Notes under the pieces: generated by a model
Database searches by the model: none
The model's input: the letters and a program-made list of their open reading frames with translations, nothing else
Told to the model about the DNA's origin: nothing
Assembly (NCBI GenBank): GCA_965287045.1
Contig: OZ336876.1
Coordinates: 22,196,001-22,260,000, forward strand
Direction of reading: 5' to 3'
DNA from: Carcharhinus amblyrhynchos
Lineage: Eukaryota
DNA: 64,000 bases
Made by a program: the position numbers and the translations under genes
Shown: positions 11,980 through 62,702 of the stretch, one piece after another
Position numbering within the stretch: the first letter of the stretch is position 1
Layout: every line of letters begins with the position of its first letter

Positions 11980-13245
11980 TGTTTGCTGGAGCAGACGAGT
12001 GAAGGAGCAGAGAGAGAGCTAAGATTTTACCTGTTAAAAACCTGTTTAAAATAAGTTTAAAGCACTTTGTTCTTTGTAGAACTGTTTAAAGCATTTATTT
12101 ATTGTATTTACTGCTTTAAGAATTCTGAGGGAGTGGTTAGCAGGCAGTTGTGGGCCATCAGATTTAAATCAGCGCCAGGTTTAAAAGGAGGCCTGGTGTA
12201 GACAGCGGGCAGCGTCTGAGCGGGCAGTGGAGTGAGAGGGAAGCAGAGTGAGCTACTAGGGCTTAATATCAAAAAGGGCTGGAAGGAAAAAAGGCCAGGT
12301 GAGTTTGTTTGAAAAACAAAAAAAACAAAAAAAAAAAAATTTTTTCAAAACTACTACAGTGAATAATGGAGGGGCATGTGATGTGTGGTTTCTGTATGAT
12401 GTGGGAACTGGTGGACCCTAGGGTTCATCCCAGTGACCATGTCTGCAGTAAGTGCAGGTTGCTGGAGGAGCTCCAGCTCAGGGTAAATGAGCTGGCCTCT
12501 GAGCTACAGACATTGAGGCTCATCAAGGGGAGAGAGGGTGCCATTGTCAATGGGGTGCAAGTGACATCCACCCCCCCTAGACTGGCTAACTCTAAGGGTC
12601 AGGGACAAGAGGGGGCTACTGGGAAGAGGAAGGGGGGTGAGGAGCGGAAGCCTCAACCTCTTAATCTGCATAACAGGTTTGAGGTTCTTGCTTCCAAGTT
12701 GGACAAGAACGCGGCAGGTGAGGTTGGTGAGCAAGCTACACAGCAGAGGAGGTTTACTAGGCTGATACCGGAGTTGAGGGGGTTGAGCTATGAGGAGAGG
12801 CTGAATAAACTGGGCTTGTACTCGTTAGAGTTTAGAAGAATGAGAGGAGATCTCATTGAGACGTATAAGATGATGAATGGGATGGATAGGATCGAGGTGG
12901 AAAGACTCTTCCCGCTCAAAAAAGACAATAGGACTAGGGGGCACAGCCTCAAGATAAAAGGGGGGCAGTTTAGAACGGAGTTGAGGAGGAACTTCTTCAC
13001 TCAAAGGGTGGTGAATCTCTGGAATTCTCTGCCCGTTGAAGTGGTGGAGGCTGCCTCGCTAAATATTTTTAAGACGCGGGTTGATGGGTTTTTGATAGGA
13101 GAGGGGATTAAGGGTTATGGGGAGAGGGCGGGAAAGTGGAACTGAGCAGCGACAGATCAGCCATGATCTTATTGAATGGCGGGGCAGGCTCGAAGGGCTG
13201 GATGGCCTACTCCTGCTCCTATTTCTTATGTTCTTATGTTCTTAT
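11980..13245 (+). mobile_element. Internally deleted CR1: 5' UTR, ORF1 N-terminus fused to RT C-terminus, 3' UTR and tail
   Basis: 5' UTR-like leader, ORF 12366-13145, then a 3' end nearly identical to 47115-47614 with (TTCTTATG)n tail. Confidence 0.88.
12366..13145 (+). CDS. 259-aa CR1 ORF1 zinc-finger/coiled-coil fused in frame to the ORF2 C-terminal domain
   Basis: N-terminal CGFCMMWE...HVCSKCRLLEELQLRVNELASELQTLR; junction at ~12742 into QRRFTRLIPELRGLSYEERL...; no stop codons. Confidence 0.75.
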   Translation: MEGHVMCGFCMMWELVDPRVHPSDHVCSKCRLLEELQLRVNELASELQTLRLIKGREGAIVNGVQVTSTPPRLANSKGQGQEGATGKRKGGEERKPQPLNLHNRFEVLASKLDKNAAGEVGEQATQQRRFTRLIPELRGLSYEERLNKLGLYSLEFRRMRGDLIETYKMMNGMDRIEVERLFPLKKDNRTRGHSLKIKGGQFRTELRRNFFTQRVVNLWNSLPVEVVEAASLNIFKTRVDGFLIGEGIKGYGERAGKWN

Positions 13246-13448
13246 TAAGACCCTTGTTTATATCTGACTCAGTGATTTTATGTGCTTTAATTTAAATATT
13301 GGACAAAGAAGAAGTACAGTACACTCGTTTACAGGCGTCCTGTGAATCTTAGCACCTCACCGCAATGCAGAAATGGAGCATTTTGTTGACACAGATACTC
13401 TGCAGGTTCTGTATCACATTTACCATAAGAATAAATTACTAACATAGG

Positions 13449-13760: not shown

Positions 13761-14492
13761 ACAAAATTACTAACGTATAATTAACTACACTGTTTAATAG
13801 CGGTTGGATCCAATTTAAGGAATGCTGCATATTCTAATATTTAAAGTTCTTGTACCATCACTGCTACTGTCACAGTTAGAATAAAATATCAGGCTTTATT
13901 TCACCAAATGACTTGAGGCAATATGCTTACCAGTATTTTTTGAATATATTCAAAAAAATGTCCAATATGAAATTAGAGTTAAATCCTACTGGTGTGTAAC
14001 ATGACTGGATAGCTGAGAATATACAGCCTTTTACGTTACTTAACTATTTTCTTCCACATGGAAATGAAGTGTACAGTTTAGTTGCCTCAGCAAGTATAGG
14101 GCAAAATATATTCTGTATTAATACTTTAGTAAAAGTAGGATCCACAAAATGTTGCCAAAACCTTTTTTTTAAACAAGGAGGGTGAATGTAATAACTCCAC
14201 AGAGGCAAAAGTCCCATCACCAAGTTACTTTATTTACACCATCCATCTGCACACAGCCAACTCTCCAGTTGCTCCCTGCTGAATGCAAGCTGGGAGTCTG
14301 ACATATCTGCTTTAAATGGGGAGCAGGAGGCTCCCTGATTTAACCATCAATTAGGACTCATCAGATAGCTCATTTGACACCAACCAAATAAACGAATTCA
14401 AATTAACAGACGGACAATTAAAAGGGGCAGCTCCCCAAAAGGAAGAGGGGAACAGCCCAAAAAAAGGCAAAGTCAGAAGGGAACTTAAAACA

Positions 14493-17400
14493 TCAAATCA
14501 AAAGGCGATAATCGGGGTCTATAATGCACCCCAGCCCCTGCGGTGCCCAGCGGGCGCGGAAGGTGTCAGTTGCGCCTGTAGACACTGCATGGTCCCTCAC
14601 CAGGGACACCTGGCTGCGAATATAGCTGTGGTAGAGGGTCAGACAGTCAGGATGGACGACCCTGTCGATCACCCGCTGCCTGGACCTGTTGATGGCATGT
14701 CTCACCAGGCTCAGGAGCAGGGACATGAGGAGGTCATCCTCCCGACTTGCCCCCCCTCCACTCCAGGCACCTGTAGGTCAGGAGCTTGGGACTGAAGTGC
14801 AGACAAAACATCAGTAAAAGATTTTTCAGGAAATTGAAAAGGGTGCGCAACCTATAACACAAGACGTAGATATGATCCACAGATTCCACAAGATTACAAA
14901 AAGGACATGCTTGGGAGCCCGTGAACCTGAAAAACCTACGGTTGTACAGAAATGCTAAGTGCAACATTTCCCCAAGATAGTGCAGGGAGATCCCTCCGTA
15001 GAGGGACCTCCACTGAGAACCTCTGCCACCTAGTGGCAACAAAGGCCTGCCAAGGTGTATCCGGCAATGGGTGTGCAGCAGCAGCCCGTACAGGAAACGC
15101 ATCCACGCAGTGGCAAAGGGCACGGAGGACATTTCCATGAGGCGACACACGCTGTGGGGGCCCTGACTGGGGGGGAGGGGGAGTCTAGGCTTGGGGCCAA
15201 TGTGTCCCATCCGAGCAGGGGAACACTCGGGCAGGATCCCACCGCACTGTTGCGCCGTCTCAAGACAGTACAACTGTTCTAAGGTCTTGGATGGCTTTGG
15301 CCACATGACGGACAGTCACCCCCACACACTCAGCCAGGAGTGGGCTGGATTCATCCAGCCCCCTCCTCCGCCAACCAGCACATCCCCGATCCTGCTCATC
15401 CCACCATCCATGGCCCTCCTTCCCACCAGCCACCTGAAGTTACACGGTTGGAGAAGCAGATTCCTCAGCAGCGGCCCTCACACGAGAGCCGCTACTCCTG
15501 ACGGGAGAGAGCTGTGTCGCGAGGTGACCATGTTCCAGACCATGACGGTAGAAGATGGACAACACCTGCATGGAGGTTGGGAGATGCCTCAGATTTACAT
15601 ACAGGAGCTGCACGTCATAATTCATGCTGTGCCACTGGCAGAAGAAATATGTCACCGGGGCACACCATTGTGGAGGAGACTCAACATCAAGGTATCTCTG
15701 CAGGGTCTGGAGGCAGAAGGTCGCTATCTGTATGTGGAGGCACACCAGACCTTGACCACCCTTCCCAAGTGGGAGAAGCAGAACCTCAGCAGAGACCCAG
15801 TGCAGTCGGTTGTCTCAGAAGAACTGGACAAGGGTTCTCTGACGCTTGTGGCAAAGTTAGGGGGAGGAATCAAAATAACCAGCCGGTACCACAACATGGA
15901 GGTGATGAGCTGGTTTACGACAGTCCTGCGCTGCGAGCAGAGACTTTGGCCTCCAACTCCTGCCAGTTCGCCAACCAGGATTCCTCAGCTGGGCAGAGAT
16001 GGACCCCCAAGTAGAGGAGGTTGGTCCTGCTCCAGGTGAAAGGCCTGCGCTCCTCCGGAAGGGGGTCCGTCTCCCATGGACCGACCAGGAGTCTGGAACA
16101 CTTGGCCCAGTTGATCTGGGCAGAGGGCGCAGCGGAGTACGCCGCCTGGCATTCTCGTATCCTCCGCAGGTCAGCCGGGTCCGTGAACATGAGGAGCACG
16201 TCATCGACGTAGGCCGACAGGACCACCCCTACGTCCGGGCCACGCAGAGTCAAACCCGACAACCTCCTGCACAAGAGGCGCAGGAATGGACAAGGGGCAA
16301 GGGGCAGCCCTGCCGTACTCCTCTCCCAAAGCAAAGGGGTGCTGTCAGGGGCCCGTTAACCTTAATTAGACACTCTGCAGCAGAGTACAGTAATCAGATC
16401 CAGGCAACAAAATGCGTCCCAAACTTGAATGTCCGCAGAGTTCCAAGTAAATACTCATGTGTGAGGAAGTGGAGGGATGGGTAAGTAAGTTCGCTGATGA
16501 CACGAAGGTCGGTGGTGTTGTGGATGGTCTGGAAGGATGTCAAAAGTTGCAGCAGGACATAAATAGGATGCAGGACTGGGCGGAGAAGTGGCAGATGGAC
16601 TTCAACACAGATAAATGTGTAGTCGTCCATTTTGGCAGAACCAATGGGATGAACGAGTACACTATCAAGGGCAGGAGTCTTAGTAGTGTTGAAGAGCAGA
16701 AGGATCTAGGGGTCCGGGTCCACAGGACTCTTAAATCGGCCTCGCAGGTGGAAGAGGTGGTCAAGAAGGTGTTTGGTGCACTGGCCTTCATTAATCGAGG
16801 GATTGAGTTTAGGGGTCGGGAGGTAATGCTGCAACTTTATAAGACCCTTGTCAGGCCTCATTTGGAGTACTGTGTGCAGTTCTGGTTGCCTCACTATAGG
16901 AAAGACGTAGAAGCTATTGAAAGGGTACAGAGGAGATTTACAAGGATGTTGCCTGGACTGGGAGGCATGCCTTATGAAGTTAGGTTGAGGGAACTGGGTC
17001 TCTTTTCCCTGGAGAGACGAAGGTTGAGAGGCGACCTGATAGAGGTTTATAAAATGTTGAGAGGAATGGATAGGGTGGATTCTCAGAGGCTATTTCCCCG
17101 GGTTGAAATGGTCGCTACGAGAGGACACAGATTGAAGGTGCGGGGAGGAAAGTACAGAAGTGATGTTAGGGGTAAGTTTTTCACTCAGAGGGTGGTGAGT
17201 GAATGGAATCGGCTGCCGTCAGTGGTGGTGGAGGCGAACTCGCTGGGGTCTTTTAAAAGACTTCTGGATGAGTATATGTGGTTTTATGGGATTGGGGGTT
17301 ATAGATAGGTGTTGACGTGATCGGCGTAACTCATGGGCCGAAGGGCCTGTTTGTGCTGTAGTGTTCTATGTTCTATGTTCTATGTTCCACCCTGTTGAAC

Positions 17401-19067
17401 GCATTCTCCTGACTGAATGCTAAGAAGGCGCTCAACAGACCAGCCCTTTGGGAATGACGGATAAGATCCCGGGTTAGATATAAATTGTCATGGATTTGCC
17501 TACCTGGTATCGTGGTCAGGCTGCATCATGTGGTCCAGCACAGACCCAAGGCACAAAGCCATTGCCCTGGCTAAGATCTTATAATCCATGCTGAGGAGGG
17601 AGACTGGGCGCCAGTTCTTAAGACACTGGAGATTCCCCTTCTTTGGCCGCAGAGCAATGATGGTCCTCGCCATGAAAGGGGCTTCTCCCTGGTAGCGATG
17701 CTCTCCCCCAGGATCCTTGCGTAGTCGTTCCCCTAGGACGTCCCAGAGCGCCCTGAAGAAGTCCAGCCCCGGGGCCTTGCCTCGTTGGAGGCTGTTGAGG
17801 GTGCCGGTCAGTTCGGCCATGGTGATATTGGCCTCAAGCCTGCCGACATCTTACGGGCTGACCACACAACTCTGTGGGCATCCTCACTGGATGGATCCAG
17901 AGAGAAGAGTGTAATAGTCTTGGGCAATAGCCCTGATGCCCTCTGGATCCTAGACCGGGGAATCATCGTCGGCCCGCAGCGTAAGGAGCTGCTGATGGTT
18001 AGCCCGCCCTTTTCCCAGTGAATAGAAGAAGGGGGAGCTGTGATCTGGGTCCACTTGGGACGAGTTACAGGTCCTGCAGCGCGTCCTTCTTCTCCCTGTA
18101 CCCCAGACGCAGGGCTGGGTCCGCGTCGGGCTGACTGAGGCGTGCCTCCAGGTCGAACAGCTCCTTCTCCAGCTCCTCGAGCCTGGATCTCCGCCTCCTT
18201 GTCGACCCCCTCGTGTACTCCTGACAGAAGGTACGGATGTGAGTCTTGCCCACATCCCACCATAGCCTCAAGGAGGGGAAGCCTCCCCGTTTCCTTCACC
18301 AGCCGGCCCAGAATCGACGGAACGAGTCCCGGAAGCGCTCGTCCTCCAGCAGCGTGTTGTTCGAGTGTCAGTACACCGACCCCCCCTGGATGCAGGATGG
18401 ACCAAATTCTGCCCACACCAAGTGGTGGAGGCCAATGGGGTGCTCGACATGTGCGCCCTCGTAATAGAGAGGCTGTAGAGTCTGAACGCTCCGCCTCCAG
18501 GCTTCACAAAAGTGGAAGTCCTGGAGTCAGGATGGAGATGTCTCCAGACGTCCATGAAGCCACGGGTCCCAAACAGGTCCCTCAACTTCACCAGCGCCAG
18601 GGCGCACAGCCAGGGGCCGGTGAGGTCCTGAGCCTCGAAGGTACAGTTGAAATCCCCCCCCCCGAGGATGATGCATTTGCCCCCTGCGATGGTGTCGAGA
18701 TGAGCGGACACTTTGTCATAGAAAGTCGTTTGTTGTGGTCCAGCAGTCGGGGCCGAGACGTTCAGGAAGTGGATGACCTCCTTGCGGATTGCCAAGTGCA
18801 GCAACCGGCCTGGCACAGGCTCCTTGACTCCCAAGATCCCTGTCTGAAAACGCGGGGCCAAGAAGATAGCCATCCCATTAGGAGCAAGCGTGAGATGGCT
18901 CTTGTAGACCCCACCCCCAGCCACTCCAGGAGCTATCGGGCTTCGTCGCTCGGGTTTCTTGCAGGAAACGCAATGCAGACTTCATCGCGGAGGACCGAGA
19001 AGTTCTGGGACCTGCGGAGCGGTTCACTGCGGGCGTTGACGTTGAGGCTGGCTACAGTCACCTTCTT
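14493..19067 (-). pseudogene. Tx1 ORF2 (APE endonuclease, RT, C-terminal Zn-finger), frameshifted and interrupted by CR1
   Basis: VTVASLNVN, ILGGGDFNCT, KNWRPVSLLSMDYKILA, AFNRVE/HEYL, LSAYVDDVLL, CPFCNLVESVDHIYVLC. Confidence 0.9.
16461..17386 (+). mobile_element. Young 5'-truncated CR1 nested in the Tx1 RT
   Basis: Uninterrupted frame SKFADDTKVGG...GYR*; (TTCTATG)n tail; splits Tx1 peptide AFNRVE|HEYL; ATGT present at both junctions. Confidence 0.95.
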
Positions 19068-19100
19068 GTCAGTAGCGTTGGGCCACCGTCACCACTTAAT

Positions 19101-21109
19101 CTAAGTGCGTGAGGGAGTGCTGGCGCAAGACGCGCCAATCCGCTCCCCCATGAGCCCGTCGAGGATACTCCTGTACCCGGCATCACTCTTTTTCAGCCAG
19201 GCCTGGCACACCCTGGCAGCAGCTCCAGGTCCGACCACGGTCGAGGGCCAGTCGGACGTTGTCAGGGCAGCCAGAGTGGTCATTGATAAAAAGGGGGGAA
19301 GAGGGGCAACTCGGTGGGGTGCATGAGGGAGTTTCCTCGCCTCGCCCCAGGCAGACCTCAAAACTGTCCCTGTCCCACCACTGAGCAGCTTATCTCTCAT
19401 GGGGCTGTCAGCCTTCGACTCTGAGCTCCCCACTGCAGGACGTACAGCGGGCGGCACGGAGACGCCAACTGGTCCTGACTCCCCGCCCGATCTCACCCCC
19501 AGGATCAGCGGAGAAAGGGTTTCCCCCCCCACCCCCGGGCTCTTCTCCCTGGGTTCGTGGGTTAGAGGGCGATGGTGGCCAAGCCCCCACCTCTGCCCCA
19601 GAAACCTCACAGATCCGGAGAACCCTCCAGTCTGAGGTGGGCAATGCCCAGCATCAGAGGTCGGTGGTGAGGAGGGGGGGTTCTTCCTCGCCACTGTCAC
19701 CCAGGGACCCAAACAACGGGGTGCTGCCGCAGTCCCCCAGCAGGCTAAATAGGAACTCTTCTGAGATGTTGAAATGCACCGGGTGGAACAGGACCGTGGG
19801 GGCCCTGCTCTCACCCCGGCCCCGGGGAGTCCCGCTCGGAGGACTGTGGCAGCATGTCTTTCCTGTTCATGCCCTTGCCATCGTCCTGGGGGCAAGGCAC
19901 GAAGACGGGCGGGGACAGCGCAGGGGATGGGACAAACGTGGAGAGGGGTGTAGGCACCTCGATCTCTAAGCTAGGGGCAGGGGGTGTGGGGACCCCCACA
20001 GGTCTCAGATTACCCCTCCCCTGAGGCGTAGTGCCTCTTCTTGAGAAGCAACCCCCTGGCAGGGGGATGCCCCTCGCACTCTGCCCCTCTCCTTCCTGCC
20101 CTGCCCCTTTGGGCTTTCCCTTTCCCTCCCCAGGAGGCGCTGTTTCTGCTGGCTCAGGTTTGCATGCCCCCCCCCACGCATTGACCCGGGAGCCTGTGCA
20201 CCCGTGACGCCGGGCCTAGCACCTGGCACTGAAGCGTCCACGGGCACGGTAGATGGTTTTGAAGGGGGCCAGAAGTGCCCTTTTTCCCCGAGGTAGCTGC
20301 CAGGGTGACTGGGGTAGTGGGAGTTGGAGTTCCGTTCCCCCCCCCCCCCCACTTTTTTGCCCTTCTTATCTGGGGTCTTCTGGTTTCATGGAAGTTCTGC
20401 TCCCAGCACCCCCCTCCACCGGCAGCCAAGATGGCAACTGCTGCCTACACAGCCTCCTCTTCCGGGGGGCCAGGTGAGACTTGGTTGGGGGGAGAGGAGG
20501 CTGCAGTGCCAGCTGCGGCGGCCTTGGAGTCGTGGCAGTTCTTTTTAACGTGCCCCACCTCCTAACAGTCATGATACCGCATACCGTCAATGGACCAGAA
20601 GACCCTGTAGGTGGTCCTCTTGAAGGGGATGTTAAAGCCCCCTCGAGACACTCTTCCCGGCCAAGCGGACATAGACCTGGCGCTGGAAGGAGTACACGTG
20701 CCTGAGGGCAGGGTCATGAGGATCGGTGCCATGCTGGACCTGACCTCCCCCAGTAGATGGAGATGAGGGATGAAGGGTGGGACGTTCGAGATGACAATTT
20801 GACGGATGGTGACCTCTGGGGGGAATGTCCCGCCGCTGTGAGCCCCTTTTCCAGGGCGAGGTGGACCACCCGTTTGGCCTTCGAAAAGAATATGGCCCTA
20901 CTCTACATCTTTGAGGCCATGACAATGGCTGAGGGGCTGACAACCCCAGCCATTGCCCGAACGCAGGTCTCAATGGTCATGTCGGGGTGGGTGTGGCACT
21001 TTACACCCAGTTGTTTGGTGCTGAGGCTGAAAGATGGCAGGGCCTTGGGAGCGGCGGGGGCTTTGGCCTCCGCCATACCTGCATAGGTGAGCCTGGAAGG
21101 CCCTGCCAT
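19101..21109 (-). pseudogene. Tx1 ORF1 (gag-like, CCHC knuckle), disrupted
   Basis: MAGPSRLTYA...GVKCHTHPDMTIETCVRAMAGVVSPSAIVMASKM; degenerate knuckle HDC*EVGHVKKNC at ~20530-20580; low-complexity C-terminal part. Confidence 0.8.
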
Positions 21110-21977
21110 GGCGACGGTGTCACTGTCACAATGTTTTCAATGGGTGCTAAGCCCACCCAAGACTGCCCAGGTGCATGGCAGGGCATACCAATGATTACTT
21201 TTTCCATGGGGTGGGGGGGGGCTTTGCAGGGAGGGGTGGGTGAGGGGCCTCTCTGGCCTTTATGACAGGCGCAGAGAGGGATAGAGAGGGAAAGGAGTGT
21301 GGGTATAATGGGAGGGGGGGTGGACATGGTGTCTCTGCCCAAGTGTTGGGGAACAGAGAGGGAATGAGGGAGGGTGGGGTGGCTGGGGGTCCAGGTGCTC
21401 TCTCCCTGGTATCAGAGAGAGAGAGAGAAGGGGACGGACGGGCAGGAGGGAGGACAAGGGACATGGCACTGAGGAGGGTTGGTGCTCCAGTCAGGAGGAA
21501 GGGGTGCCAGTGTTGGGGGCAGCAGCATTGGGTAGGGGACTTCCAATCTTCAGTCCTGTTGGGACAACCAATAAAAAATCCCGGGGGTCTTCACTCTCCC
21601 ACCCCTATAGCTTCCTGTAGTTCCCCCCCACCTTCCTTTCAGGCACGGACCTTGGATAACTGGGGACACCAGCCCAACAACCCAGTCCTTAGATGTTGAG
21701 AGCCTTCCTTTGCGGAGTGCTGTTCTCCCTCCTGCAGGTGGAGAGCATCTCTTTCCCTCCCTCCCTTCTCCCACGGACAGAGCACCTTCTGGTAGCTCCC
21801 CGCGCAGGATGGGCGGTGGATCCTACTTCCTGCCTTCCTTCCTGTGGAAATCCTTGAAGGGAAGCAAAGGGCCCCTCACCGAGCTTTCCTCTTTCCAACA
21901 GCAACAGCACCAACAGTCCACTTCTCTGCTCATAGGCAGCCATGTGAATGCAGGCCGGGAGATTGCCTGTCTATTAA

Positions 21978-22320
21978 TTAATGAGGGGCATAGACAAGTC
22001 ATTATCTTTTCCCAAAGGTAGGGGAGTCTAAAACTAGAGGGCATGGGTTTAAGGTGAGAGGGGAGAGATACAAAAGTGTCCAGAGGGGCAATTTTTTCAC
22101 ACAGAGGGTGGTGAGTGTCTGCAACAAGCTGTCAAAGGTAGAAATAGAGGCGGGTACAATTTTGTCTTTTAAAAAGCATTTAGATTGTTACATGGGTAAC
22201 ATGGGATGTGAGCCAAATGTGGGCAATTGGGATTAGCTTAGGGGTTTTTAAAAAAAGGGTGGCGTGGAGAAATTGAGCTGAAGGGCCTGTTTCCATGTTA
22301 TAAACCTCTGTGACTCTATA
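21978..22320 (+). mobile_element. CR1 3' fragment joined head-to-head with the Tx1 5' end
   Basis: taatgaggggcatagacaag...ttcacacagagggtggtgag...tgactctat; same subfamily as 59560-60195. Confidence 0.88.
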
Positions 22321-22677
22321 ACCTGCTTTAAATAGGGAGCATGAGGCTCCCTAATTTAACCATCAATTAGGACTCATCAGTTGGTTCATACTCACTAGCC
22401 TGGCTGAAGTCATCACGCTCCTCCCCCCCCGCCTCCAAAGTCCAAGGAATCCCCTCGGTTTGCTTCCCTCAGGGGTCTTTTCCTCAGCCTGAGCACCGGG
22501 TCAGCCTCTTCCAACTCGGCCTCTGATGTTGGCGGTGCGTAACAGTTGGGCGCCCGCCTCTTCTGCTGCGAATGCTGGAGGTCTGGTTCCTCGTTCACCT
22601 CAGGTGGTCGGGGAATCGCTACAGCTTCATCCCCTGTGTCCATTTTGGACACTGAAGTCCCCATCAAGAGTGCAGTA

Positions 22678-22842
22678 CTTGGGGGTGAATGGGATCAAAG
22701 ATTATGGAGAGAAAGCAGGATTAGGCTATTGAGTTGGACAATCAGCCATGATTGTAATGAATGGCAGAGCAGGCTGAAAAGGCCAAATGACCTCCTCCTG
22801 CTCTTATTTTCTATGTTTCTATATTTCTATGTTTCTACATGT
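22678..22842 (+). mobile_element. CR1 3' UTR and tail
   Basis: gatcaaagattatggagagaaagcagg...(TTTCTATG)n. Confidence 0.8.
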
Positions 22843-23551
22843 TTCATATCTCCAGAAATATTTTCCCCCCTCTGGTTCTTCAGGTTCATTCCCAGAGGAG
22901 GAATAGAGTCAGAATGATGAGCGCACCAAAGAAACATCTAATCAGAGAGAACCCACCACACAATCCGAGCTCAGATCCTACACTGTAGAAAGAACACAAA
23001 GGCATCAGATCTCTGGTAGGAATCTTCACAGAGCCCTATCTAAACTTTATTATAAAAGATAAAACGTTACGACACCAAAGACAAGGATACAGATTAACCA
23101 AAGCTGATATGTGTCTGTGCTACAAAACCCTATCACACCTAAAATACGGTGAAGCATGCAGAACATTCAATTTGCTTGTGATGGTTGTACAACAATGTGG
23201 CAATGTTACAGAATATTAACATCAGCACATTGGTGCAGAAAATTGGTTCTACAGCTAACCTTTTCATCGTAGGGAACAGAAAAATGCCATCTCCCAGGAT
23301 ACAACCATTAAAGCTCTGCTAAGTCCTCTGCACTCCAGCCTGTCACCAAGACCTGATTTTCACTTTAATGGACAGGTCTCCTGTTGTGGTGAAAATCCCA
23401 TAAATGGGCAAAATTTCTAATACCAGCCCCTGAACTCTGCATTTCCCATCTTTGTGGGAAAAGGTTAGGAGTCAGCTCATTCATGCTTACTTAATCGAGG
23501 CAACTGGTCATTTACTGAAGGCATGCTTTCACTGATTGAGCACTTATAGTA

Positions 23552-24457
23552 TAATATAGAAACATTGAAGATAGGAGGAGGAGGAGGAGGCCATTTGACC
23601 CTTCAAGCCCACTCTGCCATTCATCACGATCATGGCTGATTGTCCAACTCAATAGCCTAATTCTGCTTTTTCCCCATAACCTTTGATTTCACTCGCCCCA
23701 AGTGCTATATCTAGCCACCTCTTGAATACATTCAATGTTTTGACTTCAACTACTTCCTGTGGTAATGAATTTCACAGGTTCACCACTCTTTTGGTGAAGA
23801 AATGCCTCCTCACTTCCATCCTAAATGGTCTATCCTGAATCTTCAGACTGGTTCTCGATTCCCCCATCATCTGGAATATCTTCCCTGCATTGACCCTGTT
23901 TAATCCTGTTTAGAATTTTATAAGTCTCTATGAGATCCCCCCTCATTCATTTGAATTTGGCGAAAACAATCCTAATCTGGTCAATCTCTCTGATTTTCCA
24001 CACGAACATGAGCTGATTTTCTATATTAGGTCCAAGATTCCACATTATCCCCGTATTCAGCAATTCCCTTTGTATCTTAAAACTTATTGACCTCTGTTAA
24101 CAACTGATCATCCACAGTTCTTTGGGATAGGGAATTCCAAAGGGAAGAAATTTCCCTCCTTTCAGCCTAAATGGTTGACCCTTATTCTGAGTCTGACTCA
24201 ATGATGCTACATTCTACAGCCCAGGAAAATAATTTCTCAGCATTCACCGTTAAGCCCCTTCCAAATGTTACATGTTTCAATTCGATAGTGTCTCATTCTT
24301 TGAAACTCCAGGGAATATAGACCTAGTCTACTCAATTCCTTCTTATAGGATAATAACTTCAACCCACCAACCAATCTAATGAACCTTCATTTCACTCCAT
24401 GTAGGATACGTATGTCCTTCCTTTGATAAGGAGACCAAAACTGTACACAGTATTCCA
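23552..24457 (-). mobile_element. Two CR1 3' fragments
   Basis: Reverse-complement 3' UTR and RT C-terminal sequence (ccaaaactgtacacagtattccag = LEYCVQFW). Confidence 0.75.
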
Positions 24458-25228: not shown

Positions 25229-25625
25229 AGACTTTATTCTGTATCTAACCCTGTGCTGTACCTGTCTTGGGAGTAAATGATGGGGACAATATAGAGGGAG
25301 CTTTACTCTACCTGTCCTAGGAGTGTGTGATGGGGAGAGTGTAGAGGAAGCTTTTCTCTGAATCCAACCCCGTGCTATACCTGTCCTGGGAGTGTTTGAT
25401 GGCGGACAGTATAGAGGGAGCTTTACTGTGTATTTAATCCTGTCTGTACCTGTCCTGGGAGTGTATGATGAGGACAGTAAAGTGGGAGCTTTATTTAACC
25501 CCATGCTTTACCTGTCCTGGGAGTGTTTGATGGGGCAGTGTCGAGGGAATTTTACTCTGTACCAACCCCGTGCTGTACCTGTCCTTGGGAGTATTTGATG
25601 GGGACAGTGTAGAGGGAGATTTTAA
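25229..25625 (+). repeat. ~69-bp minisatellite, ~6 degenerate units
   Basis: Unit consensus gtatctaaccccgtgctgtacctgtcctgggagtgtttgatggggacagtgtagagggagctttactct. Confidence 0.9.
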
Positions 25626-29919: not shown

Positions 29920-32134
29920 CGATAGCATTGGAAAGAGATAGGATCAGGCAAGCTAGGAAAGTGTTTATCTGCAATAAGGGGAAATATGAAGGCATCGGGC
30001 AGGAAATTAGATGAGTAAATTGGAAGGAGGTGTTCTTGGGGAAAAGTACCGAAGGAAGGTGGCGGATTTTCAAGGAATGTTTGCCTGGAGCTCTGCACGA
30101 CAATGTTCCGATGAGACAGGGAGGTTTTGGTAGGTTACGGGAACCGTGGCGCATGAAGGTTGTAATGAACCTAGGCAAAAAGAAAAAAAGGCGTACAGAA
30201 GTTTAAGAGAGCTAGGAGATGTTAGGGATCTAGAGGAGTATACGGGTTGTAGGAAGGAACTTAAAAAGGAAATTAGGAGAGCCAGAAGGGGTCACGAGAA
30301 GGCCTTGGTGGGTAAGATTAAGGAGAACCCTAAGGCGTTCTACAAATATGTGAAGAGTAAAAGGAAGAGATGCGAAGGAATAGGACCTATAAAATGTGAA
30401 GGTGGGAAAGTTTGTGCGGAACCGGTAGAAATGGCTGAGGTGCTTAATGAATACTTTACCTCGGTATTCACGATGGAAAATGATCTGGATGGTTGTACTG
30501 CAGGTTTGCGGCGGACTGAAAAGATTGAGTATGTGGACATTAAGAAAGAGGATGTGTTGGAAATTTTGAATAGCATCAAGATAGATAAGTCGCCAGGACT
30601 GGATGAGATGTACCCCAGGTTACTGTGGGAGGTGAGGGAGGTGATTGCAGAGCCCCTGGCGATGATCTTTGCATCGTCGATGGAGACGGGTGAAGTTCCG
30701 GAGGATTGGAGGATTGCGGATGTGGTTCCTATTTTCAAGAAAGGGAACAGGGATAGCCCGGGAAATTACCGACCGGTGAGTCTAACCTCAGTGGTTGGTA
30801 AGTTGATGGAAAAGATCCTGAGGGACAGGATTTATGAACATTTAGAGAAGTTTATTATGCTCAAAAGTAGTCAGCATGGCTTTGTCAAGGGCAGGTCATG
30901 TGTTACAAGCCTCGTTGAGTTCTTTGAAAATGTGACTAAACACATTGATGAAGGAAGAGTGGTAGATGTGGATGATATGGACTTCAGTAAGGCATTCGAT
31001 AAGGTCCCCCATGCAAGACTTCTTGAGAAAGTGAGAGGGCATGGGATCCAAGGGGCTATGGCTTTGTGGATCCAGAACTGGCTTGCCCATAGAAGGCGGA
31101 GAATGGTTGCGGATGAGTCTTTTTCTGCATGGAGGTTGGTCACCAGTGGAGTGCCCCAGGGATCTGTTCTGGGACCCTTGCTGTTTGTGATTTTCGTAAA
31201 TGACCTGAATGAGGAAGTGGAGGGATGGGTTGGTAAGTTTGCCGATGACATGAAGGTTGGTGGTGTTGTGGATAGTCTGGAGGGATGTCAGAAGTTACAG
31301 CGTGACATAGATAGGATGCAAGACTGAGTGGAGAAGTGACAGATGGACTTCAACCCGGACAAATGAGTAGTGGTCCATTTTGGCAGGTCCAATGGGATGA
31401 AGGAGTACACTTTCAAGGGTAAGACTCTTAGCAGTGTAGAGGATCAGAAGGACCTTGGGGTCTGGGACCATAGGACTCTTAAATTGGCCTCGCAGGTAGA
31501 GGATGTGGTCAAGAAGGCGTATGGTGTACTGGCCTTCATCAATTGAGGAATTGAGTTTAGGAGTTGGGAGATAATGCTGCAGCTCTAAAAGACCCTAGTC
31601 AGACCCCACTTGGAGTACTGTGCTCAGTTCTGGTCGCCTCATTACAGGAAGGATGTGGAAGCAATTGAAAGGGTGCAGAGGAGATTTACAAGGATGTTGC
31701 CTGGATTGGGTGGCATGCCTTATGAGGATAGGTTGAGGGAGCTCGGTCTTTTCTCCCTGGAGAGACGAAGGATGAGAGATGACCTGATAGAGGTTTATAA
31801 GATGCCGAGAGGTATTGATCGGGTCGATTCTCAGAGGCTATTTCCCAGGGCTGAAATGGTCGCTACGAGACGACACAGGTTTAAGGTGCTGGGAAGCAAG
31901 TACAGAGAAGCTGTCAGGGGTAAGTTTTTCACTCAGAGGGTGGTGGGTGAGTGGAATCGGCTGCCATTGGTGGTGATGGAGGCGAATTTGTTCGGGTCTT
32001 TTAAGAGACTTCTGGATGAGTACATGGTATTTAATAGGATTGAGGGTTATAAGTACGCCTAGTAGGCAGGGACATGATCAGCACAACTTGTGGGCCAAAG
32101 GGCCTGTTTGTGCTGTAGTTTTTCTATGTTCTAT
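29920..32134 (+). mobile_element. CR1 LINE, 5'-truncated ORF2
   Basis: 393-aa ORF 30146-31327 with NYRPVSLTSVVGK, DFSKAFDKVPH, PQGSVLGP, KFADD; stop codons downstream; ttctatgttctat tail. Confidence 0.95.
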
Positions 32135-32514
32135 ATTTATGATATTTCTGCCCAATTGGGCCTGCAGCAAGCGGTGAGAGAACCAAAACAGGGGAAAAAT
32201 CTACATGACAGATTCCCATTTGACAACATCGATAGAAATGATAACCATGTGGTCCTTGTGAAGACATAGATACACCTTCACACTGAGGATACCCTGCATC
32301 ATGTTATGTGGCACCACCACCACCACAGTAAGTGACATATTCTGGATCTATGTCCAGTTTTGAGCTGCTAGGTATGTTCCAAATCTATTTGATATCTGTA
32401 ACCTCATGGCTCAGCATATCTCTCATTGTATCATCTATCAAGTCAGGAAGAGACACTTGCCAAGAGCAGCCTTCAGACCTACCTAAAAATGGGGTACCAG
32501 CCTGGTGAATCGAT

Positions 32515-38459: not shown

Positions 38460-41010
38460 GGGAGGCGATGGCTAGTGGTATTAACCCAGAAACCCAGCTA
38501 ATGTTCTGGAGACCCGTGTTCGAACCCCGCCATGGCAGGTGGTGGAATTTGAGTTCAATAAAAAATATCTGGAATTAAGAGTCTTCTGATGACCATGACA
38601 CCATTGTCGATTATCAGAAAAACCCATCTGTCCTTTAGGGAACAAAATCTGCCGTCCTTACCTGGTCTGGCCTACATGTGACTCCAGAGCCACAGCAATG
38701 TGGTTGACTCTTAGTTGCCCTCAGAAATGGCCTAGCAAGCCACTCAGTTGGAACAATCGCTACAAAATCTCAACAAAGAAATGAAATCAGGGTGGATCAT
38801 CTGGCATCAACCTAGGCACTGGAAAAGATAAGGGCAAAAAAAAAAACAGCCCTGTCAATCCTGCAAAGTCCTCCTTACTAACATCTGGGGGCTAGTGCCA
38901 AAATTGGGAGAGCTGTCTCACAGACTAGTCAAGCAACAGCCTGACATAGTCATTCTCACAGAATCATACTTTAGAGAAGAGTGGCTTGGCAGCAGCATTA
39001 AAGATCAAGCTGATTGCGTCCGAAAGGATATAATTGCTAGACTGGGTTTGCAGCAAGTGGTGAAGGAATCAACGAGAGGAAATAACATACTTGACCTCAT
39101 CCTTATCGATCTGCCGGCTGCGAATGCATCTATCCATGACAGGATTGTTAAGAATGACCACTCCACAGTCCTTGTGGAGACGAAATCCCACCTTCATATT
39201 GAGAATAACCTCCATCGTGTTGTGTGGCACTATTACTGTGCTAAATGGGACAGACTTCGAACCGATCTAGCAATTCAAGACTGGTCATCCATGAGGCACT
39301 GTGGGCCATCAACAGCAGTGGAATTGTACTCCAGCAAAAATCCGCAACCTCATGGCCTGGCATATCCCCCACTCAACTATTGGCTTCAAGCAGGGGATCA
39401 ATCCTGATTCAATGGAGAGTGCAGGAGGGCATGCCAAGAACAGCACTAGGCATGCTTTAAAATGAGGTGTCAACCTGGTGAAGTTACCAACAGGACAACT
39501 TGCATGCCAAATGGCAAAAACACAAGTGATAGACAGAGTTACGCGATCCCGCAACCAATGGATCAGACCTAAGCTCTGCAGTTCTTCCAGATCCAGTTGA
39601 GAATGGTGGTGAACAATTAAACAACTCACTGGAGGAGGAGATTCCACAAATATCCCCATCCTCACTGATGGAGGAGCCCAGCAGATCAGTGCACAAGATA
39701 AGGCTGAAGTATTCGCAGCAATCTTCAACCAGAAGTGTCAAGTGGGTGATCCATCTTGGTCTCTTCCAGTGGTCCCCAGCGTCTCAGATACCAGTCTCCA
39801 GCCAATTCGATTCATTCCACGTGATAACAAGAAGCAGTTGGAGGCACTGGATACTGCAAATGGAAATGGGCCCTGATAACATTCTGGCATTAGTACTGAA
39901 GACTTGTGCTCCAGAACTTGCTGCTCTCCTAGCCAAGCTCTTCCAGTGCAGTTACAACATTGGCGTCTACCCAACAATGTGGAAAATTGCCCAGGTATGT
40001 CCTGTACACAAAAAGCAGGACAAATCTAACCCCGCTAATTATTGCCCAATCAGCCTACTCTTGATCATCAGTATCCAGTATAGAAGGGGTCATCAACAGT
40101 GTATCAAGCAGCACTTGCTCAGCAATAACCTGCTCAGTGGCGCCCAGTTTGGGCTTTGCATAAGTCACTCAGCTCCTGACCTCATTACAGCCTTGATTCA
40201 AACATGGACGATAGAGCTGAATTCCAGAAATGAGGTGAGAGTGACAGTCCTTGACATCAAGGCCGCATTTGACCTAGTGTGGTATCAAGGAGCCCTAGCA
40301 AAACTGGAATCAATGGGTATTGGGGGCAAACTCTCCACTGCTTGGAGTCGTACCTGGTACATAGGAAAATGGTTGTCGTTGTGGAGGGTCAGTCATCTCA
40401 GCTCCACTGCATCTCTGTGGGAGTCCCTCAGGGAAGTGTCCTCAGCCCAACAATCTTCAGCTGCTTCATCGATGACCTTTCCCCGTCATAAGGTCAGAAG
40501 TGGGGATGTTTGCCAACTATTGCACAATGTTCAGCACCATTCATGATTCCTTAGATATTGAAGCAGTCCATTTTAAAACGCAACAAGATCTGGACAATAT
40601 CCAAGCTTGGGCTGACAAGTGACAAGTAACATTCATGCCACACAAATTCCAGGCAATGATCATCACCAATCAGAGACACTCTAACTGCCGCCCCTTGGCA
40701 TTCAATGGTGTAACCATCACTGGATTCCCCCATCTTTGCAGTTACCATTGACCAGAAACTGAACTGGATTAACACATAAACACCGTGGCTACAGGAGCAG
40801 GTCAAAGGCTCAGAATACTGCAGCAAGTAACTCACCTCCTGACTCCCCAGAGCCTATCCAGCCTCTACAAGGCACAAGTCAGGAATGTGATGGAATACTC
40901 CTCACTTGCCTGGATGAGCGCAGCTTCAACAACATTCGAGAAGCTTGATACCATCCAGGACAAAGCAGCCCACTTGATTGGCACATCTACTAACATTCAA
41001 CCCTCTCCCA
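38460..41010 (+). mobile_element. ORF1-less CR1/L2-group LINE with tRNA- and Deu-like SINE head, disrupted EN-RT
   Basis: Head ggggaggcgatggctagtggta...gtgttcgaacccc; Deu-like core ccttacctggtctggcctacatgtgactccag; then LLTNIWGL..IVILTES (EN), NPANYCPISLL, DIKAAFDLVW, GVPQGSVLSP. Confidence 0.85.
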
Positions 41011-45049: not shown

Positions 45050-48000
45050 TAATCAAACATAGCCAAAATCAACACTGCATCTTTTTCCCCTTATAAAACT
45101 AAAGATCTTATTTTGAATTGACTCATCGTAAACAACAAACGGAAGTACACTGAATAATTTCTTACAGTTCAGCTTGCCAGTTACTTGGTTGCGTGAACCT
45201 GCAAGATACTCAACTTTGAAGTTATACTGATGAAGGTGATCTGACCATTTGTAGGTACAGAGAGGTTGATGGCTAGATTCTGATGTGGCTAATATAGTCA
45301 ATGACTGGAGATTGGTGTGGAGAGTAAACTTTCTACCATAGATACATGTGCCAATGTCCACAAGTGTAGATGCAGGCTGTGCTTCCTGCTTTCCAACAGA
45401 GTATTTCTGTTCAGCTATTGACAACAGCATCTGCCATGTAAGCAATAGCATGTGCTTCCTTGAATATACCATGAGAACATGACTCCAATTATATTTCCTG
45501 AGGCACCTGTTGTGACATACATTCCTGCTAATGGGTTGAAATGCATAAGATCTAGAAAAATGCTACCTTCACCTTTAAGGTGAAATGCTGTTTTCTGTGC
45601 AATTATCTATTTGCATTTTTGTTCACTAGTGTCTAAAGAGTCTCTGCAATTTCTACATACTCAGGAATAAACTTGTGATAAAAATTGGTTATACTGAGGA
45701 ATTATGCCAATTATTTCATGTCAGATGGGACTAGAAGCGTGCAAATGGCTTTGATGTTATCGTGTGTAGGCTTTACTCCAGCTGCTGTCATTTTGTACCC
45801 TAGGAAGTCAATCCTGAGAGCTGCAAATGTGCATTTGTCTTTGTGGAGTATTAAATGGTCTTAATGGCAAGCTGAGTGAGCACTGCTGATAATTGTTTTG
45901 TTTCGGTCTTCACGGAGGAAGACGTGAATAATTTGCCGGGTGTTAGCGATGGAAAGGTGGTAGGACTGGAGGGTCTCAATGACTAGAGAGGTGGTGCTCG
46001 ACAGACTGGAGGGACTGATTGTGGACAAGTCCTCAGGACCGGATGGAATGCATCCGAGGGTTCTGAAAGAAATGGCGGAGGTGATAGTGGATGCCTTGGT
46101 GGTTATTTTCCAAACGTCGCTGGATTCCGGGGAAGTGCCGGAAGATTGGAAAGCGGCTAATGTTACGCCGTTGTTTAAGAAGGGTGCCAGGCAAAAGGCA
46201 GGGAATTATAGGCCGGTTAGTTTAACGTCTGTGGTAGGTAAAATGTTAGAATCCGTCATCAAGGAGGAAACAGCGAGGCATCTTGAGGGGAATTGCTTGA
46301 TAGAGCAGACGCAGCACGGTTTCGTTAAGGGGAAGTCGTGTCTTACAAATTTATTGGAGTTCTATGAGGATGTGTCTAGGGCGGTGGATAGAGGAGAGCC
46401 GGTGGATGTGGTCTTTCTTGATTTTCAGAAGGCGTTTGACAAGGTACCTCACAAGAGGTTATTGCAGAAGGTAAGGGGGCATGGAGTTGGGGGTAGGGTG
46501 TTAGCGTGGATAGAGGATTGGCTGTCAAAGAGGAGGCAGAGAGTGGGGGTTAATGGGTGCTATTCGGATTGGCGGTTGGTGACTAGTGGAGTGCCCCAGG
46601 GGTTGGTTCTGGGGCCTCAGCTATTTACCATTTATATAGATGATCTGGAGGAGGGAACCGAGTGTATGGTGTCGAAATTTGCTGATGACACCAAGATTGG
46701 TGGAAAGGCAAATTGCGCGGAGGGTGTGGAGAGTCTGCAGAAGGATCTAGATAGGCTGGGCGAATGGGCCAGGAAATGGCAAATGGAATTTAATGTTGGC
46801 AAGTGCGAGGTGGTCCACTTTGGTAGGAATAATGGTAGGAAGGACTATTACTTACGGGGCGAAAAACTGCAGCAGGCGATGGTGCAGAGGGACCTCAGGG
46901 TCCTTGAGCATGAGTCGCAAAAACCCAGCCTGCAGGCGCAGCAGGTGGTCAGGAAGGCTAATGGGATGCTGGCCTTCATAGCGAGGGGGATTGAATATAA
47001 AAGTAGGGAGATCTTGCTGCAGCTGTATAGGGCATTGGTGAGGCCGCAGCTGGAGTACTGTGTGCAGTTTTGGTCGCCGTACTTACACAAGGATATTTTG
47101 GCCTTGGAGGGAGTGCAGAGGAGGTTTACTAGGCTGATACTGGAGTTGAGGGGTTGAGCTATGAGGAGAGGCTGAATAAACCAGGCTTGTACTCGTTAGA
47201 GTTTAGAAGAATGAGGGGAGATCTCATTGAGATGTATAAGATGATGAATGGGATGGATAGGATAGAGGTGGAGAGGCTCTTCCCGCTCAGAAAGGACAGT
47301 AGGACTAGGGGGCACAGCCTCAAGATAAAGGGGGGGCGGTTTAGAACGGAGTTGAGGAGGAACTTCTTCACTCAAAGGGTGGTGAATCTCTGGAATTCTC
47401 TGCCCGTTGAGGTGGTGGAGGCTGCCTCGCTAAATATTTTTAAGACGCGGGTTGATGGGTTTTTGATAAGCGAGAGGATTAAGGGTTATGGGGAGAGGGC
47501 AGGAATGTGGAACTGAGCCACGACAGATCAGCCATGATCTTATTGAATGGCGGGGCAGGCTCGAAGGGCTGGATGGCCTACTCCTGCTCCTATTTCTTAT
47601 GTTCTTATGTTCTTATAATCACTGATCAGGTTCTGCTTTTTCCCTTCCATGGACAGCAATGTTTTCAAGTTGGTAGACCATCCCTGCAACATCTGACAAG
47701 ATTGAGGAAATGATCTTCTGGAATACGCTAAATGCTGATCTTATTCCACAGAGCATTCTGCGATATTGAAACGCAGTTGCAAGAGTAACAAAAGCTTTAA
47801 GCTCTTTCCACCATTTCTCTGACACCACACCCGGGCTTAACTAATTCAGCACACAGTGAGCATCAACTGTAAACAGAGTTACAATATTGAACACAGAACA
47901 ACTGAGCCACACAGATTCCCTTACAAAGTGGACTGTGGGGATACAAAGTCATTTTGGGGTTGGGAATTGGGTGGTGTCAACACACCTGTTAATTTCCAGC

Positions 48001-48500
48001 CACTGGCCAATTTTTGAGACTGAACACTCTGGTGTTGGCAACCACTGCTTGGGCGTCAGCAGAGAAGTTCAGCCCATTTCTGCCCCATTTATCAGCATCT
48101 AATTTTGTGGAGTGAATCTAAAGCAGATATTACTTATGCTCCTTGTTAATATATTAACAGGGCCTAACACCCTTGGTTGCACCCATTTTACACTCAAAGT
48201 TTGATATCTATCTCTATGAGCTTTTGTAATTTTAGAGAAACACAACACCTAACAGAAGCCAGTTTTCTTTCAGATCTTGATGCCAGCTGAAGATTCAACA
48301 TCAACTGGGAATCCATCAAATGTAATTCACCTCAATATGTACTTATCCGTGGCAATTAGATGTTGTGATCTTAAGGAGATGGATCAAGTTAAACACATCT
48401 CCATCTTAGCAGCAGAATAATGCTTAACAGGGTAACTATATCATAATGCTCCTCTCATAAAACAGCGTATGCTCTGGGTAAACATGAGGTATGACATATT
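45050..48500 (-). mobile_element. Gypsy protease/RT/RNase H relic, split by CR1
   Basis: AFQYRRMLCGIRSAFSVFQKIISSIL; IDFLGYK; AEQKYSVGKQEA; YGRKFTLHTN; YNFKVEYLAGSRNQV. Confidence 0.8.
45894..47614 (+). mobile_element. Young CR1, RT intact except one frameshift; TSD ATAAT
   Basis: 392-aa ORF then a 1-nt loss in a G run at ~47150 compared with 12775-12782; (TTCTTATG)n tail; ATAAT at 45889-45893 and 47615-47619. Confidence 0.95.
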
Positions 48501-48529
48501 AAATCCATTACCAGTTATGTTACGAAAAC

Positions 48530-49170
48530 AATATAGAGGCAATGGAGTCAGTGCAGGTAAGGTTTATGGGGATGTGATCATAGGTTTCAGGAATGGATTG
48601 ACAGGCTGGACCTCTTTTCTCTTGGAAATAAAGAAGTCTGAGGGGTGACTCAAAAGAGATCTTTCTAGTTCTGAGAGGATTTGATAGAATGAGTGCAGAG
48701 AGAATGTTTCCCGGCAGAGGAAGAGTATAACTAGGTCACCAATATAAGAAAGTCATCAGGAAATCCAATCATGAAATCAGAAGAAACTTCTTTACCCAAA
48801 GGATGGTGAGAATGTGGAGCTCACTACCACTTGGAGTGGTTGAAGCAATTTGTATCTTGTGTCCCGCGTTCAATATTGTAACTCTGTTTACAGTTGATGC
48901 TCACTGTGCTGAATTAGTTAAGTGTGGTCTCAGAGAAAAGTAAACAAATGGTGGAAAGAGTTAAAAGCTTTTGTTCCTCCTGCAACTGCGTTTCAATATC
49001 GCAGAATGCTCTGTGGAATAAGATTAGCATTTAGCATATTTAAGAGAAAACTAGCCAAACATTTGAGGGAGAAGGAGAGAGAGTCACAATGATAGACTTA
49101 GATTAAAAATATGGGAAAATGCTCAAGTTGAGTTAGTTGGGCTGATATATTGTATGTTGTATATTAAGTA
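48530..49170 (+). mobile_element. Old CR1 3' fragment carrying an inverted copy of nearby Gypsy sequence
   Basis: agaaacttctttacccaaaggatggtgagaatgtgg; interrupted at 48856-49040. Confidence 0.7.
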
Positions 49171-58766: not shown

Positions 58767-59072
58767 ATGTGGAGATGCTGGTGTTGGACTGGGGTAAACT
58801 CAGCAAGAAGTCTGACAACATCAGGTTTAAGTCCAACCAATTTATTTGATAGTAAACTCACAAGCTTTTGGGGTTTGCCCTTCATCAGGTGAACGGAGAG
58901 TTCTGGCCTCTGACAGAGCATATAAAGCACAGACTGTCTGTGTTATATGCTCTGTCTGAGGCCAGAACTCTCCATTCACCTGATGAAGGGCAAACCCCAA
59001 AAGCTCGTGAGTTTACTATCAAATAAATTGGTTGGACTTAAACCTGATGTTGTCAGACTTCTTACTGTGTTT
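58767..59072. mobile_element. Fold-back Penelope-like element with hammerhead motifs, 13-bp TSD
   Basis: Arms ~58792-58934 and 58936-59076 are near-perfect reverse complements; ACCCTTAAAACTG at 58754-58766 and 59073-59085. Confidence 0.85.
58975..59011 (+). ncRNA. Minimal type-I hammerhead ribozyme-like motif (GAAA box reads AAAA)
   Basis: ttcac CTGATGA agggcaaacccc AAAA GC TC gtgag: stem I ttcac/gtgag, stem II ggg/ccc, palindromic AGCT stem III; mirror copy at 58857-58893 (-). Confidence 0.6.
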
Positions 59073-59094
59073 ACCCTTAAAACTGCACAACCCA

Positions 59095-59520: not shown

Positions 59521-59559
59521 GGCTAAATGTTGTCGAGATGGTTGGATATTGTTGGGAGT

Positions 59560-62615: not shown

Positions 62616-62663
62616 GAAGTCAAACTCCCGGGGCGAACTGTAACACATTGTCAGGTGCATGAA

Positions 62664-62667
<4 letters not shown>

Positions 62668-62699
<32 letters not shown>
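62668..62699 (+). repeat. (CA)n microsatellite
   Basis: About 16 consecutive CA units. Confidence 0.95.

Positions 62700-62702
<3 letters not shown>

Follow-up and report, generated by a model that had tools for sequence, protein, structure and literature searches.

How two long interspersed nuclear elements (LINEs) of apparently different clades can come to lie head-to-head between the two copies of one target-site duplication (TSD) is the question raised by a locus of Carcharhinus amblyrhynchos, contained in a 64-kb stretch of contig OZ336876.1 (positions 22,196,001 to 22,260,000, hereafter the window). Segments 14307-14364 and 22323-22380 of the window are direct repeats, identical at 55 of 58 positions; both their limits and the three mismatches, described in a first, sequence-only reading of the window, were confirmed by BLAST inside the window (E 7e-22). 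The layout reported by that reading was also found: a Tx1-like LINE on the minus strand, whose 3' end adjoins the left copy, faces a CR1-like 3' fragment on the plus strand, whose tail adjoins the right copy. It had been proposed that both ends of a single staggered break were primed, one on Tx1 RNA and the other on CR1 RNA. The present analysis points to nested insertions. A Tx1-like element, carrying a 5' leader derived from a long terminal repeat (LTR), likely produced the 58-bp duplication; a separate insertion of the CR1 fragment at the seam between duplication and leader is ranked first among the explanations of the junction, with its probability evenly balanced. The features involved are listed in Table 1.

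The nature of the DNA between the two 5' ends carries this reading. These ends had been described as meeting at about 21977, with no host DNA between them, and neither point was borne out. Homology of the CR1 fragment to its sibling copy starts at 21969, so that the junction falls at 21969-21972, where 4 nt are common to the CR1 start and to the adjacent sequence; segment 21861-21972, in turn, is homologous to the LTR stretch 14202-14308, located left of the left 58-mer. The alignment of the two reaches a score of 51, which is the best of 1206 window tiles (32.5 for the best unrelated one) and was equalled by none of 3000 shuffles preserving dinucleotides, whose maximum was 33.5. When anchored at the junction, the alignment scored 71.5, a value not reached in 200 shuffles, while a control with the CR1 tail scored 11.5. 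Identity to the LTR is 79 of 129 columns (61%), compared with 95% in the repeat, and the drop is significant by Fisher's test both for the 28 columns nearest to the CR1 (p = 0.012) and for the remaining columns (p = 6e-7). LTR-homologous DNA therefore lies between the two 5' ends, and at 61% it is more likely a leader of the Tx1 than a remnant of the target, although a short piece of target DNA may also be present. On these comparisons segment 21861-21972 is probably the Tx1's own, anciently captured, LTR-derived leader. It shows no clear LTR terminus, and a 136-aa frame spanning leader and junction gave no score for any of 51 candidates. Colinearity with the left target copy extends as far as the junction, and for this reason the CR1 has the appearance of an element inserted cleanly into LTR-like DNA.

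The sequence flanking the 58-mer had been called an LTR, a description supported by its anatomy. In sequence, positions 14187 and 22417 pair as the ends of one LTR, 9 of their 13 terminal bases being complementary and all 4 mismatches, that at the first base included, being transitions; with the 58-mer counted once, its length is about 215 bp. Beside the 22417 end lies a polypurine tract-like run with 18 purines out of 19, into which an open reading frame (ORF) runs. This frame, of which about 90 codons are left, is probably the C-terminus of an LTR-retrotransposon polyprotein and has no Pfam match. From paired termini, purine tract and upstream ORF end we infer that the flanks of the 58-mer are LTR. 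Frame and LTR are presumably of the Gypsy superfamily, a label given by resemblance, and the right 58-bp copy bears on its minus strand a TATA-like motif, which may have a promoter role. Self-BLAST of the 64-kb window gave no third copy of the 58-mer, and no further copies of the LTR or of the Tx1 ends. Bacterial and archaeal genomes, scanned with an exact 24-nt pattern, yielded 0 matches, and no copy of LTR or 58-mer.

The minus-strand LINE has two ORFs and extends from about 21860, or 21972 with its leader, down to 14365; self-BLAST found it in one copy in the window. A RVT_1 match is located in ORF2 (E 9e-8 at 15915-16355), which is colinear with residues 6-1283 of P0045, a relative of 1291 aa having itself RVT_1 and a sub-threshold zf-RVT match. 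For the endonuclease, Atlas clusters gave Exo_endo_phos with a score of 0.96, and the closest protein is P0001 (74-77% identity), which carries PF03372 and matches L1 ORF2 structures (E 4e-11). Relatives bearing a name come from Heterodontus and Amblyraja, at 46-49% identity (6 matches among 403 candidates), as would fit a host among the cartilaginous fishes. A degenerate CCHC knuckle is visible in the translation of ORF1, whose N-terminal 68 aa have no Pfam or Atlas match. We take the element to be a Tx1 by its domain order and by resemblance, no named Tx1 reference being present among the matches. It had been described as full-length, and this is correct in that neither end is missing and ORF2 is nearly complete; the copy is, however, decayed and split by a 927-bp CR1 fragment, which had gone unmentioned. 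Compared with P0045, ORF2 shows 12 frameshifts and 8 stops in 1164 codons; the counts against three other full-length relatives are 16 and 9 in 1052, 12 and 9 in 1121, and 10 and 8 in 812 codons, all such calls being approximate, as the four relatives are only 32-36% identical. In the 14000-23000 region no Rfam family, and hence no ribozyme or small nuclear RNA, reached the gathering score, the sole match having 18.3 bits against the 55 needed. A scan of a bacterial and archaeal collection with the Tx1 proteins gave no copy; of 123 stretches it hit 2, weak bacterial matches in both cases, which were not used. A composite of the LTR-Tx1-LTR type, in which the Tx1 3' end would mirror the 5' part of the LTR, was also considered, and was rejected: 37 of 1000 shuffles reached its score, and as many as 259 of 1316 window tiles did so too.

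The fragment at the junction corresponds to the C-terminus of ORF2, followed by a short 3' untranslated region and by a microsatellite tail. It is identical in 310 of 353 columns to a sibling copy at 59558-59928, on the minus strand, and ends at 22322, beside the right repeat, in a short tail of ATGACTCT-type unit, common to the sibling. One hundred family proteins were matched, the best at 82%; CR1 is the label that we assume from resemblance. A second CR1-like fragment interrupts the reverse transcriptase (RT) region of the Tx1. It has a 3-nt duplication, a tail array at 17362-17387 and a tail that overlaps the target by 6 nt; across it, the ORF2 alignment breaks off at residue 603 and is taken up again at 606, with no loss of Tx1 coding sequence. 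This internal copy (16462-17388) may serve as a clean example of the signature of a CR1 insertion. It is open for 280 codons with no disablement, which at the disablement density of the Tx1 has a probability near 0.01; it is younger than the Tx1 and was inserted afterwards. Since it is open over this length, CR1s evidently kept entering the Tx1 after its arrival. In general CR1 is dense in the window, where 26 tblastn segments correspond to about 14-17 loci in 64 kb, two of which lie in the 7.6 kb considered here.

In order to compare the ages of the two head-to-head elements, the first 255 of 334 endonuclease codons of the Tx1 were aligned to P0001, the remainder of which is out of frame, together with four outgroups. 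Among 52 amino-acid differences 29 could be assigned to the window copy and 8 to P0001, with 15 assigned to neither. Non-CpG first and second codon positions differ at 18 of 227 sites overall, and at 4 of 137 (2.9%) when only sites common to P0001 and two or more outgroups are counted. For the junction CR1, the majority residues of the top 40 of the 100 matches were used, with 81 columns kept: 11 of 78 amino acids differ (14%, the median of the 40 rows being 10%), as do 3 of 88 non-CpG sites (3.4%). The fragment has 2 disablements in 90 codons, against 20 in 1164 for Tx1 ORF2. The comparison of divergences thus gave no clear age difference: p = 1.0 for non-CpG decay (3/88 vs 4/137, Fisher's test), 0.55-0.60 for amino acids (11/78 vs 29-44/255, or 11-17%), and all four comparisons made are non-significant (p = 1.0, 0.21, 0.55 and 0.60). 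The intervals are wide (confidence interval 0.7-9.6% for the CR1), and the test resolves a factor of two or worse; dual priming was accordingly not refuted by it. The two repeats diverge at 3 of 58 positions (confidence interval 1.1-14.4%), a value compatible with the non-CpG decay of the Tx1, as expected of a TSD. All these figures are rough, the database proteins being selected for open frames, ranked by likeness to the query and possibly from other species.

The history that we favour would start with a nick upstream of the 58-bp segment, at which a Tx1-like LINE was primed, its 5' end being joined 58 bp further on. Joining would occur in register with the LTR-like leader, so as to rebuild an LTR-like unit with its TATA-like motif in front of ORF1. 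Through the leader the family would be transcribed and the 5' end of the element would be brought into register, a view drawn from one copy. These first two steps, insertion with a 58-bp duplication and an LTR-derived leader, we consider likely. The junction CR1 would then have entered separately, in antisense, at the seam of duplication and leader or within a few bases of it, soon after the Tx1, leaving only a 2-nt duplication or microhomology, and the second CR1 would have entered ORF2 later still. We infer the nick positions, the promoter use and the order of Tx1 and junction CR1; the opposite order, with CR1 first, is excluded by geometry, no CR1 adjoining the left repeat. The 58-bp duplication is explained by the Tx1-like element alone, with no need of a CR1. 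It had been judged unusually long, rightly so for this type of LINE, because LINEs with an apurinic/apyrimidinic endonuclease (APE) are stated to give 10-20 bp (PMC6895275). A separate CR1 insertion is favoured by the CT dinucleotide at both CR1 ends, by the 4-nt overlap at its 5' end and by flanks colinear with the left target copy, such as an ordinary CR1 insertion leaves; in the CR1 clade TSD length peaks at 3-5 bp, and 5' microhomology is frequent in truncated LINEs (PMC4245944). The density of CR1 fragments in the window and the later entry of the internal copy into this Tx1 speak for it as well.

Several observations weigh against this history. Only a few bases at most separate the CR1 from the place where identity switches from 95% to 61%, and a chance hit on a 7-bp seam in this orientation is expected at about 0.1% per copy, given 2 CR1 inserts in 7.6 kb; the age factor reduces this estimate and a variant with a longer duplication increases it, and it applies to a locus picked for its odd looks. 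In that variant, a duplication of about 85 bp would hold the CR1 inside it, with filler bases, and the seam coincidence would disappear; it is possible but not favoured, the gain in log likelihood (lnL) at best fit being about 3 (permutation p = 0.10) and its marginal lnL -83.0 to -84.1, against -82.2. Nor is the junction CR1 younger than the Tx1, and its decay supports insertion at the same time 1.9-4.7 times better than a uniformly later one. The leader begins 5-12 nt after the TATA-like motif, upstream of the transcription start expected from that motif, which is unexplained. Finally, leader and 58-bp duplication are seen together in a single decayed copy.

The cross-clade priming originally proposed may be considered in an amended form. 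The Tx1 protein would nick the two strands 58 bp apart, and a CR1 ribonucleoprotein would use the second 3'-OH while the full-length Tx1 cDNA awaits joining, an opening that we regard as unlikely. As improbable, to the same degree, is the ending, in which the Tx1 cDNA, terminating in the LTR-like leader, is joined to the CR1 cDNA through a 2-4 nt overlap; and the whole picture, of a Tx1 family with its own leader that parasitises LTR promoters, with the second 3'-OH taken by CR1 and two autonomous clades joined head-to-head, can be held only as tentatively. This explanation predicts position and age of the CR1 directly: the tail stands exactly where target identity switches (55/58 to 79/129, with the proximal and distal p-values given above), no age gap is detected, with the likelihood ratio of 1.9-4.7 for insertion at the same time, and the two elements have opposite orientations, with both 3' ends at the copies of one duplication. 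The 4-nt overlap at 21969-21972 also fits, although it is expected of an ordinary truncated insertion too. In humans, antisense tRNA/L1 and 5S/L1 insertions, and 12-17% of 452 Alu/L1 insertions, share one TSD, and twin priming by a second RNA has been proposed for such cases (PMC13174262). Orientation, 3' ends, overlap and lack of a measurable age gap agree with the proposal, but geometry, age and position are not specific to it, the age test has the poor resolution stated above (CR1 interval 0.7-9.6%), and the 58 bp are explicable by the Tx1 alone. Priming by the CR1 RT at a nick not its own would be required, supported by no more than 2 nt of pairing with the tail, where the internal CR1 has 6 nt. 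In the published antisense cases a single L1 protein is involved, and each human genome contains tens of them; in our comparison they are no commoner than a chance later hit in CR1-dense DNA. The locus was, moreover, selected from a scan for its unusual appearance.

The junction might instead have been inherited, a CR1 that the donor Tx1 already bore at its 5' end being copied on a read-through transcript that annealed within the 58-bp segment. The CR1 is indeed as decayed as the Tx1 or slightly more (14% vs 11-17% of amino acids; 3.4% vs 2.9% of non-CpG sites), read-through would account for a leader starting upstream of the expected start site, and Tx1-mobilised SINEU is described with 5' extensions derived from flanking DNA (PMC4494074). 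Yet the coincidence is merely shifted to the donor, read-through beyond a complete CR1 tail is required, and self-BLAST found no second copy in the window; we think this origin quite improbable, and place it below both separate insertion and cross-clade priming, in that order. These gradings are judgements, not computed posteriors. Poorest of all are the prospects of a derivation from two LTRs, in which the right one (21844-22417, with the CR1 inside) and the partial left one would be related subfamilies, brought together by recombination or by insertion with flanking sequence, the 58-mer being a conserved promoter segment rather than a target duplication. Without the CR1, the right side does read as an LTR-like unit that is nearly complete; but 95% identity would be demanded over exactly the 58 bp between Tx1 3' end and CR1 tail, against 61% in the adjacent sequence, the leader has no clear LTR terminus, and 14187 and 22417 pair as the ends of one LTR.

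With separate insertion of the CR1 retained as the first choice, several parts of the locus have known parallels. LTR-targeting Tx1 families, long TSDs and antisense insertions of two RNAs within one TSD are already described. Tx1-8_Crp and Tx1-4_AMi are crocodilian Tx1 families inserted into LTR retrotransposons (PMC4494074), and so resemble the present element in being Tx1-type LINEs within an LTR retrotransposon; they differ in host, and the element described here is known from one copy. Keno, Tx1L and SINEU share with it the location of a Tx1-type element inside a multicopy target, from which it is possibly transcribed (PMC4494074, PMC4640811, PMC1919474), transcription from flanking target being discussed for Tx1-mobilised SINEU (PMC4494074); their targets, however, are U2 genes or DNA transposons, whereas the leader described here is a divergent version of the LTR sequence that lies downstream of the insertion site. 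A long target duplication made by a LINE is also known for R9, whose stagger is 126 bp, but R9 belongs to a clade with a restriction-like endonuclease and inserts in ribosomal DNA, unlike the APE-type element of this locus (PMC6895275). PMC3747384 is also part of the literature on known relatives.

Two opposite RNAs between one pair of duplications are found in antisense Alu/L1, tRNA/L1 and 5S/L1 insertions, for which twin priming in trans was proposed, the tRNA/L1 and 5S/L1 chimeras being ascribed to twin priming; for the 452 Alu/L1 insertions in one TSD the sense fraction is 83.2% in a legend and 88.5% in the text, whence 12-17% antisense (PMC13174262). In these cases both RNAs use L1 ORF2p, the TSDs checked are of 7-19 bp and timing was established through orthologs, whereas the present locus has two autonomous LINE clades, 58 bp and no ortholog. 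In L1 cis twin priming and in synchronous L1 bridges a second DNA end likewise primes a second cDNA, with joining by microcomplementarity (10.1101/2022.05.18.492429; 10.1101/2024.08.27.596794), but the RNAs are the same or of the same family, and bridges link two loci. Neither a Tx1/CR1 head-to-head insertion nor an LTR-derived Tx1 leader was found in a literature search made mostly on titles, without subscription papers and Repbase entries.

The LTR-derived leader accompanied by the 58-bp duplication is the more solid of the new points, in one decayed copy. If the leader were a trait of the family, the LINE would take its 5' end from the LTR that it targets and rebuild that promoter at each insertion, which would bear on how LINE 5' untranslated regions are acquired and renewed and on the origin of long target duplications. 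If dual priming were true, the nick of one LINE would be usable in the germ line by the RT of another clade. A single decayed locus proves neither.

Table 1. Features of the Tx1/CR1 locus, by window position; strand "." denotes no orientation. Element names follow the assignments discussed in the text.
Feature	Position	Strand	Basis
3' part of short, presumably Gypsy-like LTR, ending ..CA at 14187; target sequence on the downstream side of the duplicated segment	14187..14306	-	terminal 13 nt
Left 58-bp copy, LTR segment	14307..14364	.	55/58 vs 22323-22380
Tx1-like 3' untranslated end, without poly(A), adjoining left repeat	14365..14516	-	sequence
Tx1-like ORF2, C-terminal part: second half of RT, C-x2-C-x7-H-x4-C motif, decayed	14517..16457	-	RVT_1; P0045 residues 606-1283
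Internal younger CR1-like 3' fragment, 927 bp, in Tx1 RT region	16462..17388	+	85% to 31210-32141
Tx1-like ORF2, N-terminal part: APE endonuclease, first half of RT, decayed	17391..19070	-	P0001; Exo_endo_phos clusters
Tx1-like ORF1, decayed, degenerate CCHC knuckle near 20530-20580	19100..21109	-	six-frame translation
Tx1-like 5' untranslated region	21110..21860	-	position upstream of ORF1
Probable LTR-homologous 5' leader, old ~61% copy of 14202-14308	21861..21972	-	alignment, shuffles, anchored test
Junction CR1-like 3' fragment of 354 bp in head-to-head position to Tx1, its first 4 nt also belonging to the leader	21969..22322	+	sibling 59558-59928
Right 58-bp copy	22323..22380	.	self-BLAST
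LTR 5' part, beginning beside purine tract	22381..22417	-	sequence and terminus comparison
Polypurine tract-like run, 18/19 purines	22418..22436	-	sequence
End of open frame running into purine tract	22416..22681	-	translation; truncated by CR1 3' end at 22682-22837

Further CR1-like sequences were observed in the window. A third 3' end, at 22682-22837 on the plus strand and also head-to-head, truncates the Gypsy-like frame, and faces a CR1-like 3' end at 23569-23699 on the minus strand, 756 bp away, with 131-nt arms at 83% identity. A recent CR1-like family is represented by 12740-13250 and 47100-47625, both on the plus strand, with 21 differences in 502 columns and the last 90 nt identical. 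Decayed endonuclease and RT frames of another LINE family are located at 38832-40546 on the plus strand (RVT_1, E 1.7e-5).

Other repeats include two near-perfect fold-back sequences, possibly small non-autonomous DNA transposons, at 58792-59076 (134-nt arms, 96%, 17-nt spacer) and 1203-1420 (93-nt arms, 96%, 32-nt spacer). Inverted arms about 1 kb apart, which enclose other repeats and are candidate terminal inverted repeats, were found at 47717-49045 (100 nt, 92%) and 62374-63487 (59 nt, 93%). A 174-aa stop-to-stop frame at 63445-63969, on the minus strand, has no Pfam match, and a minisatellite-like array at 25247-25600 consists of six copies of a 37-nt core, at a spacing of 50-69 nt.

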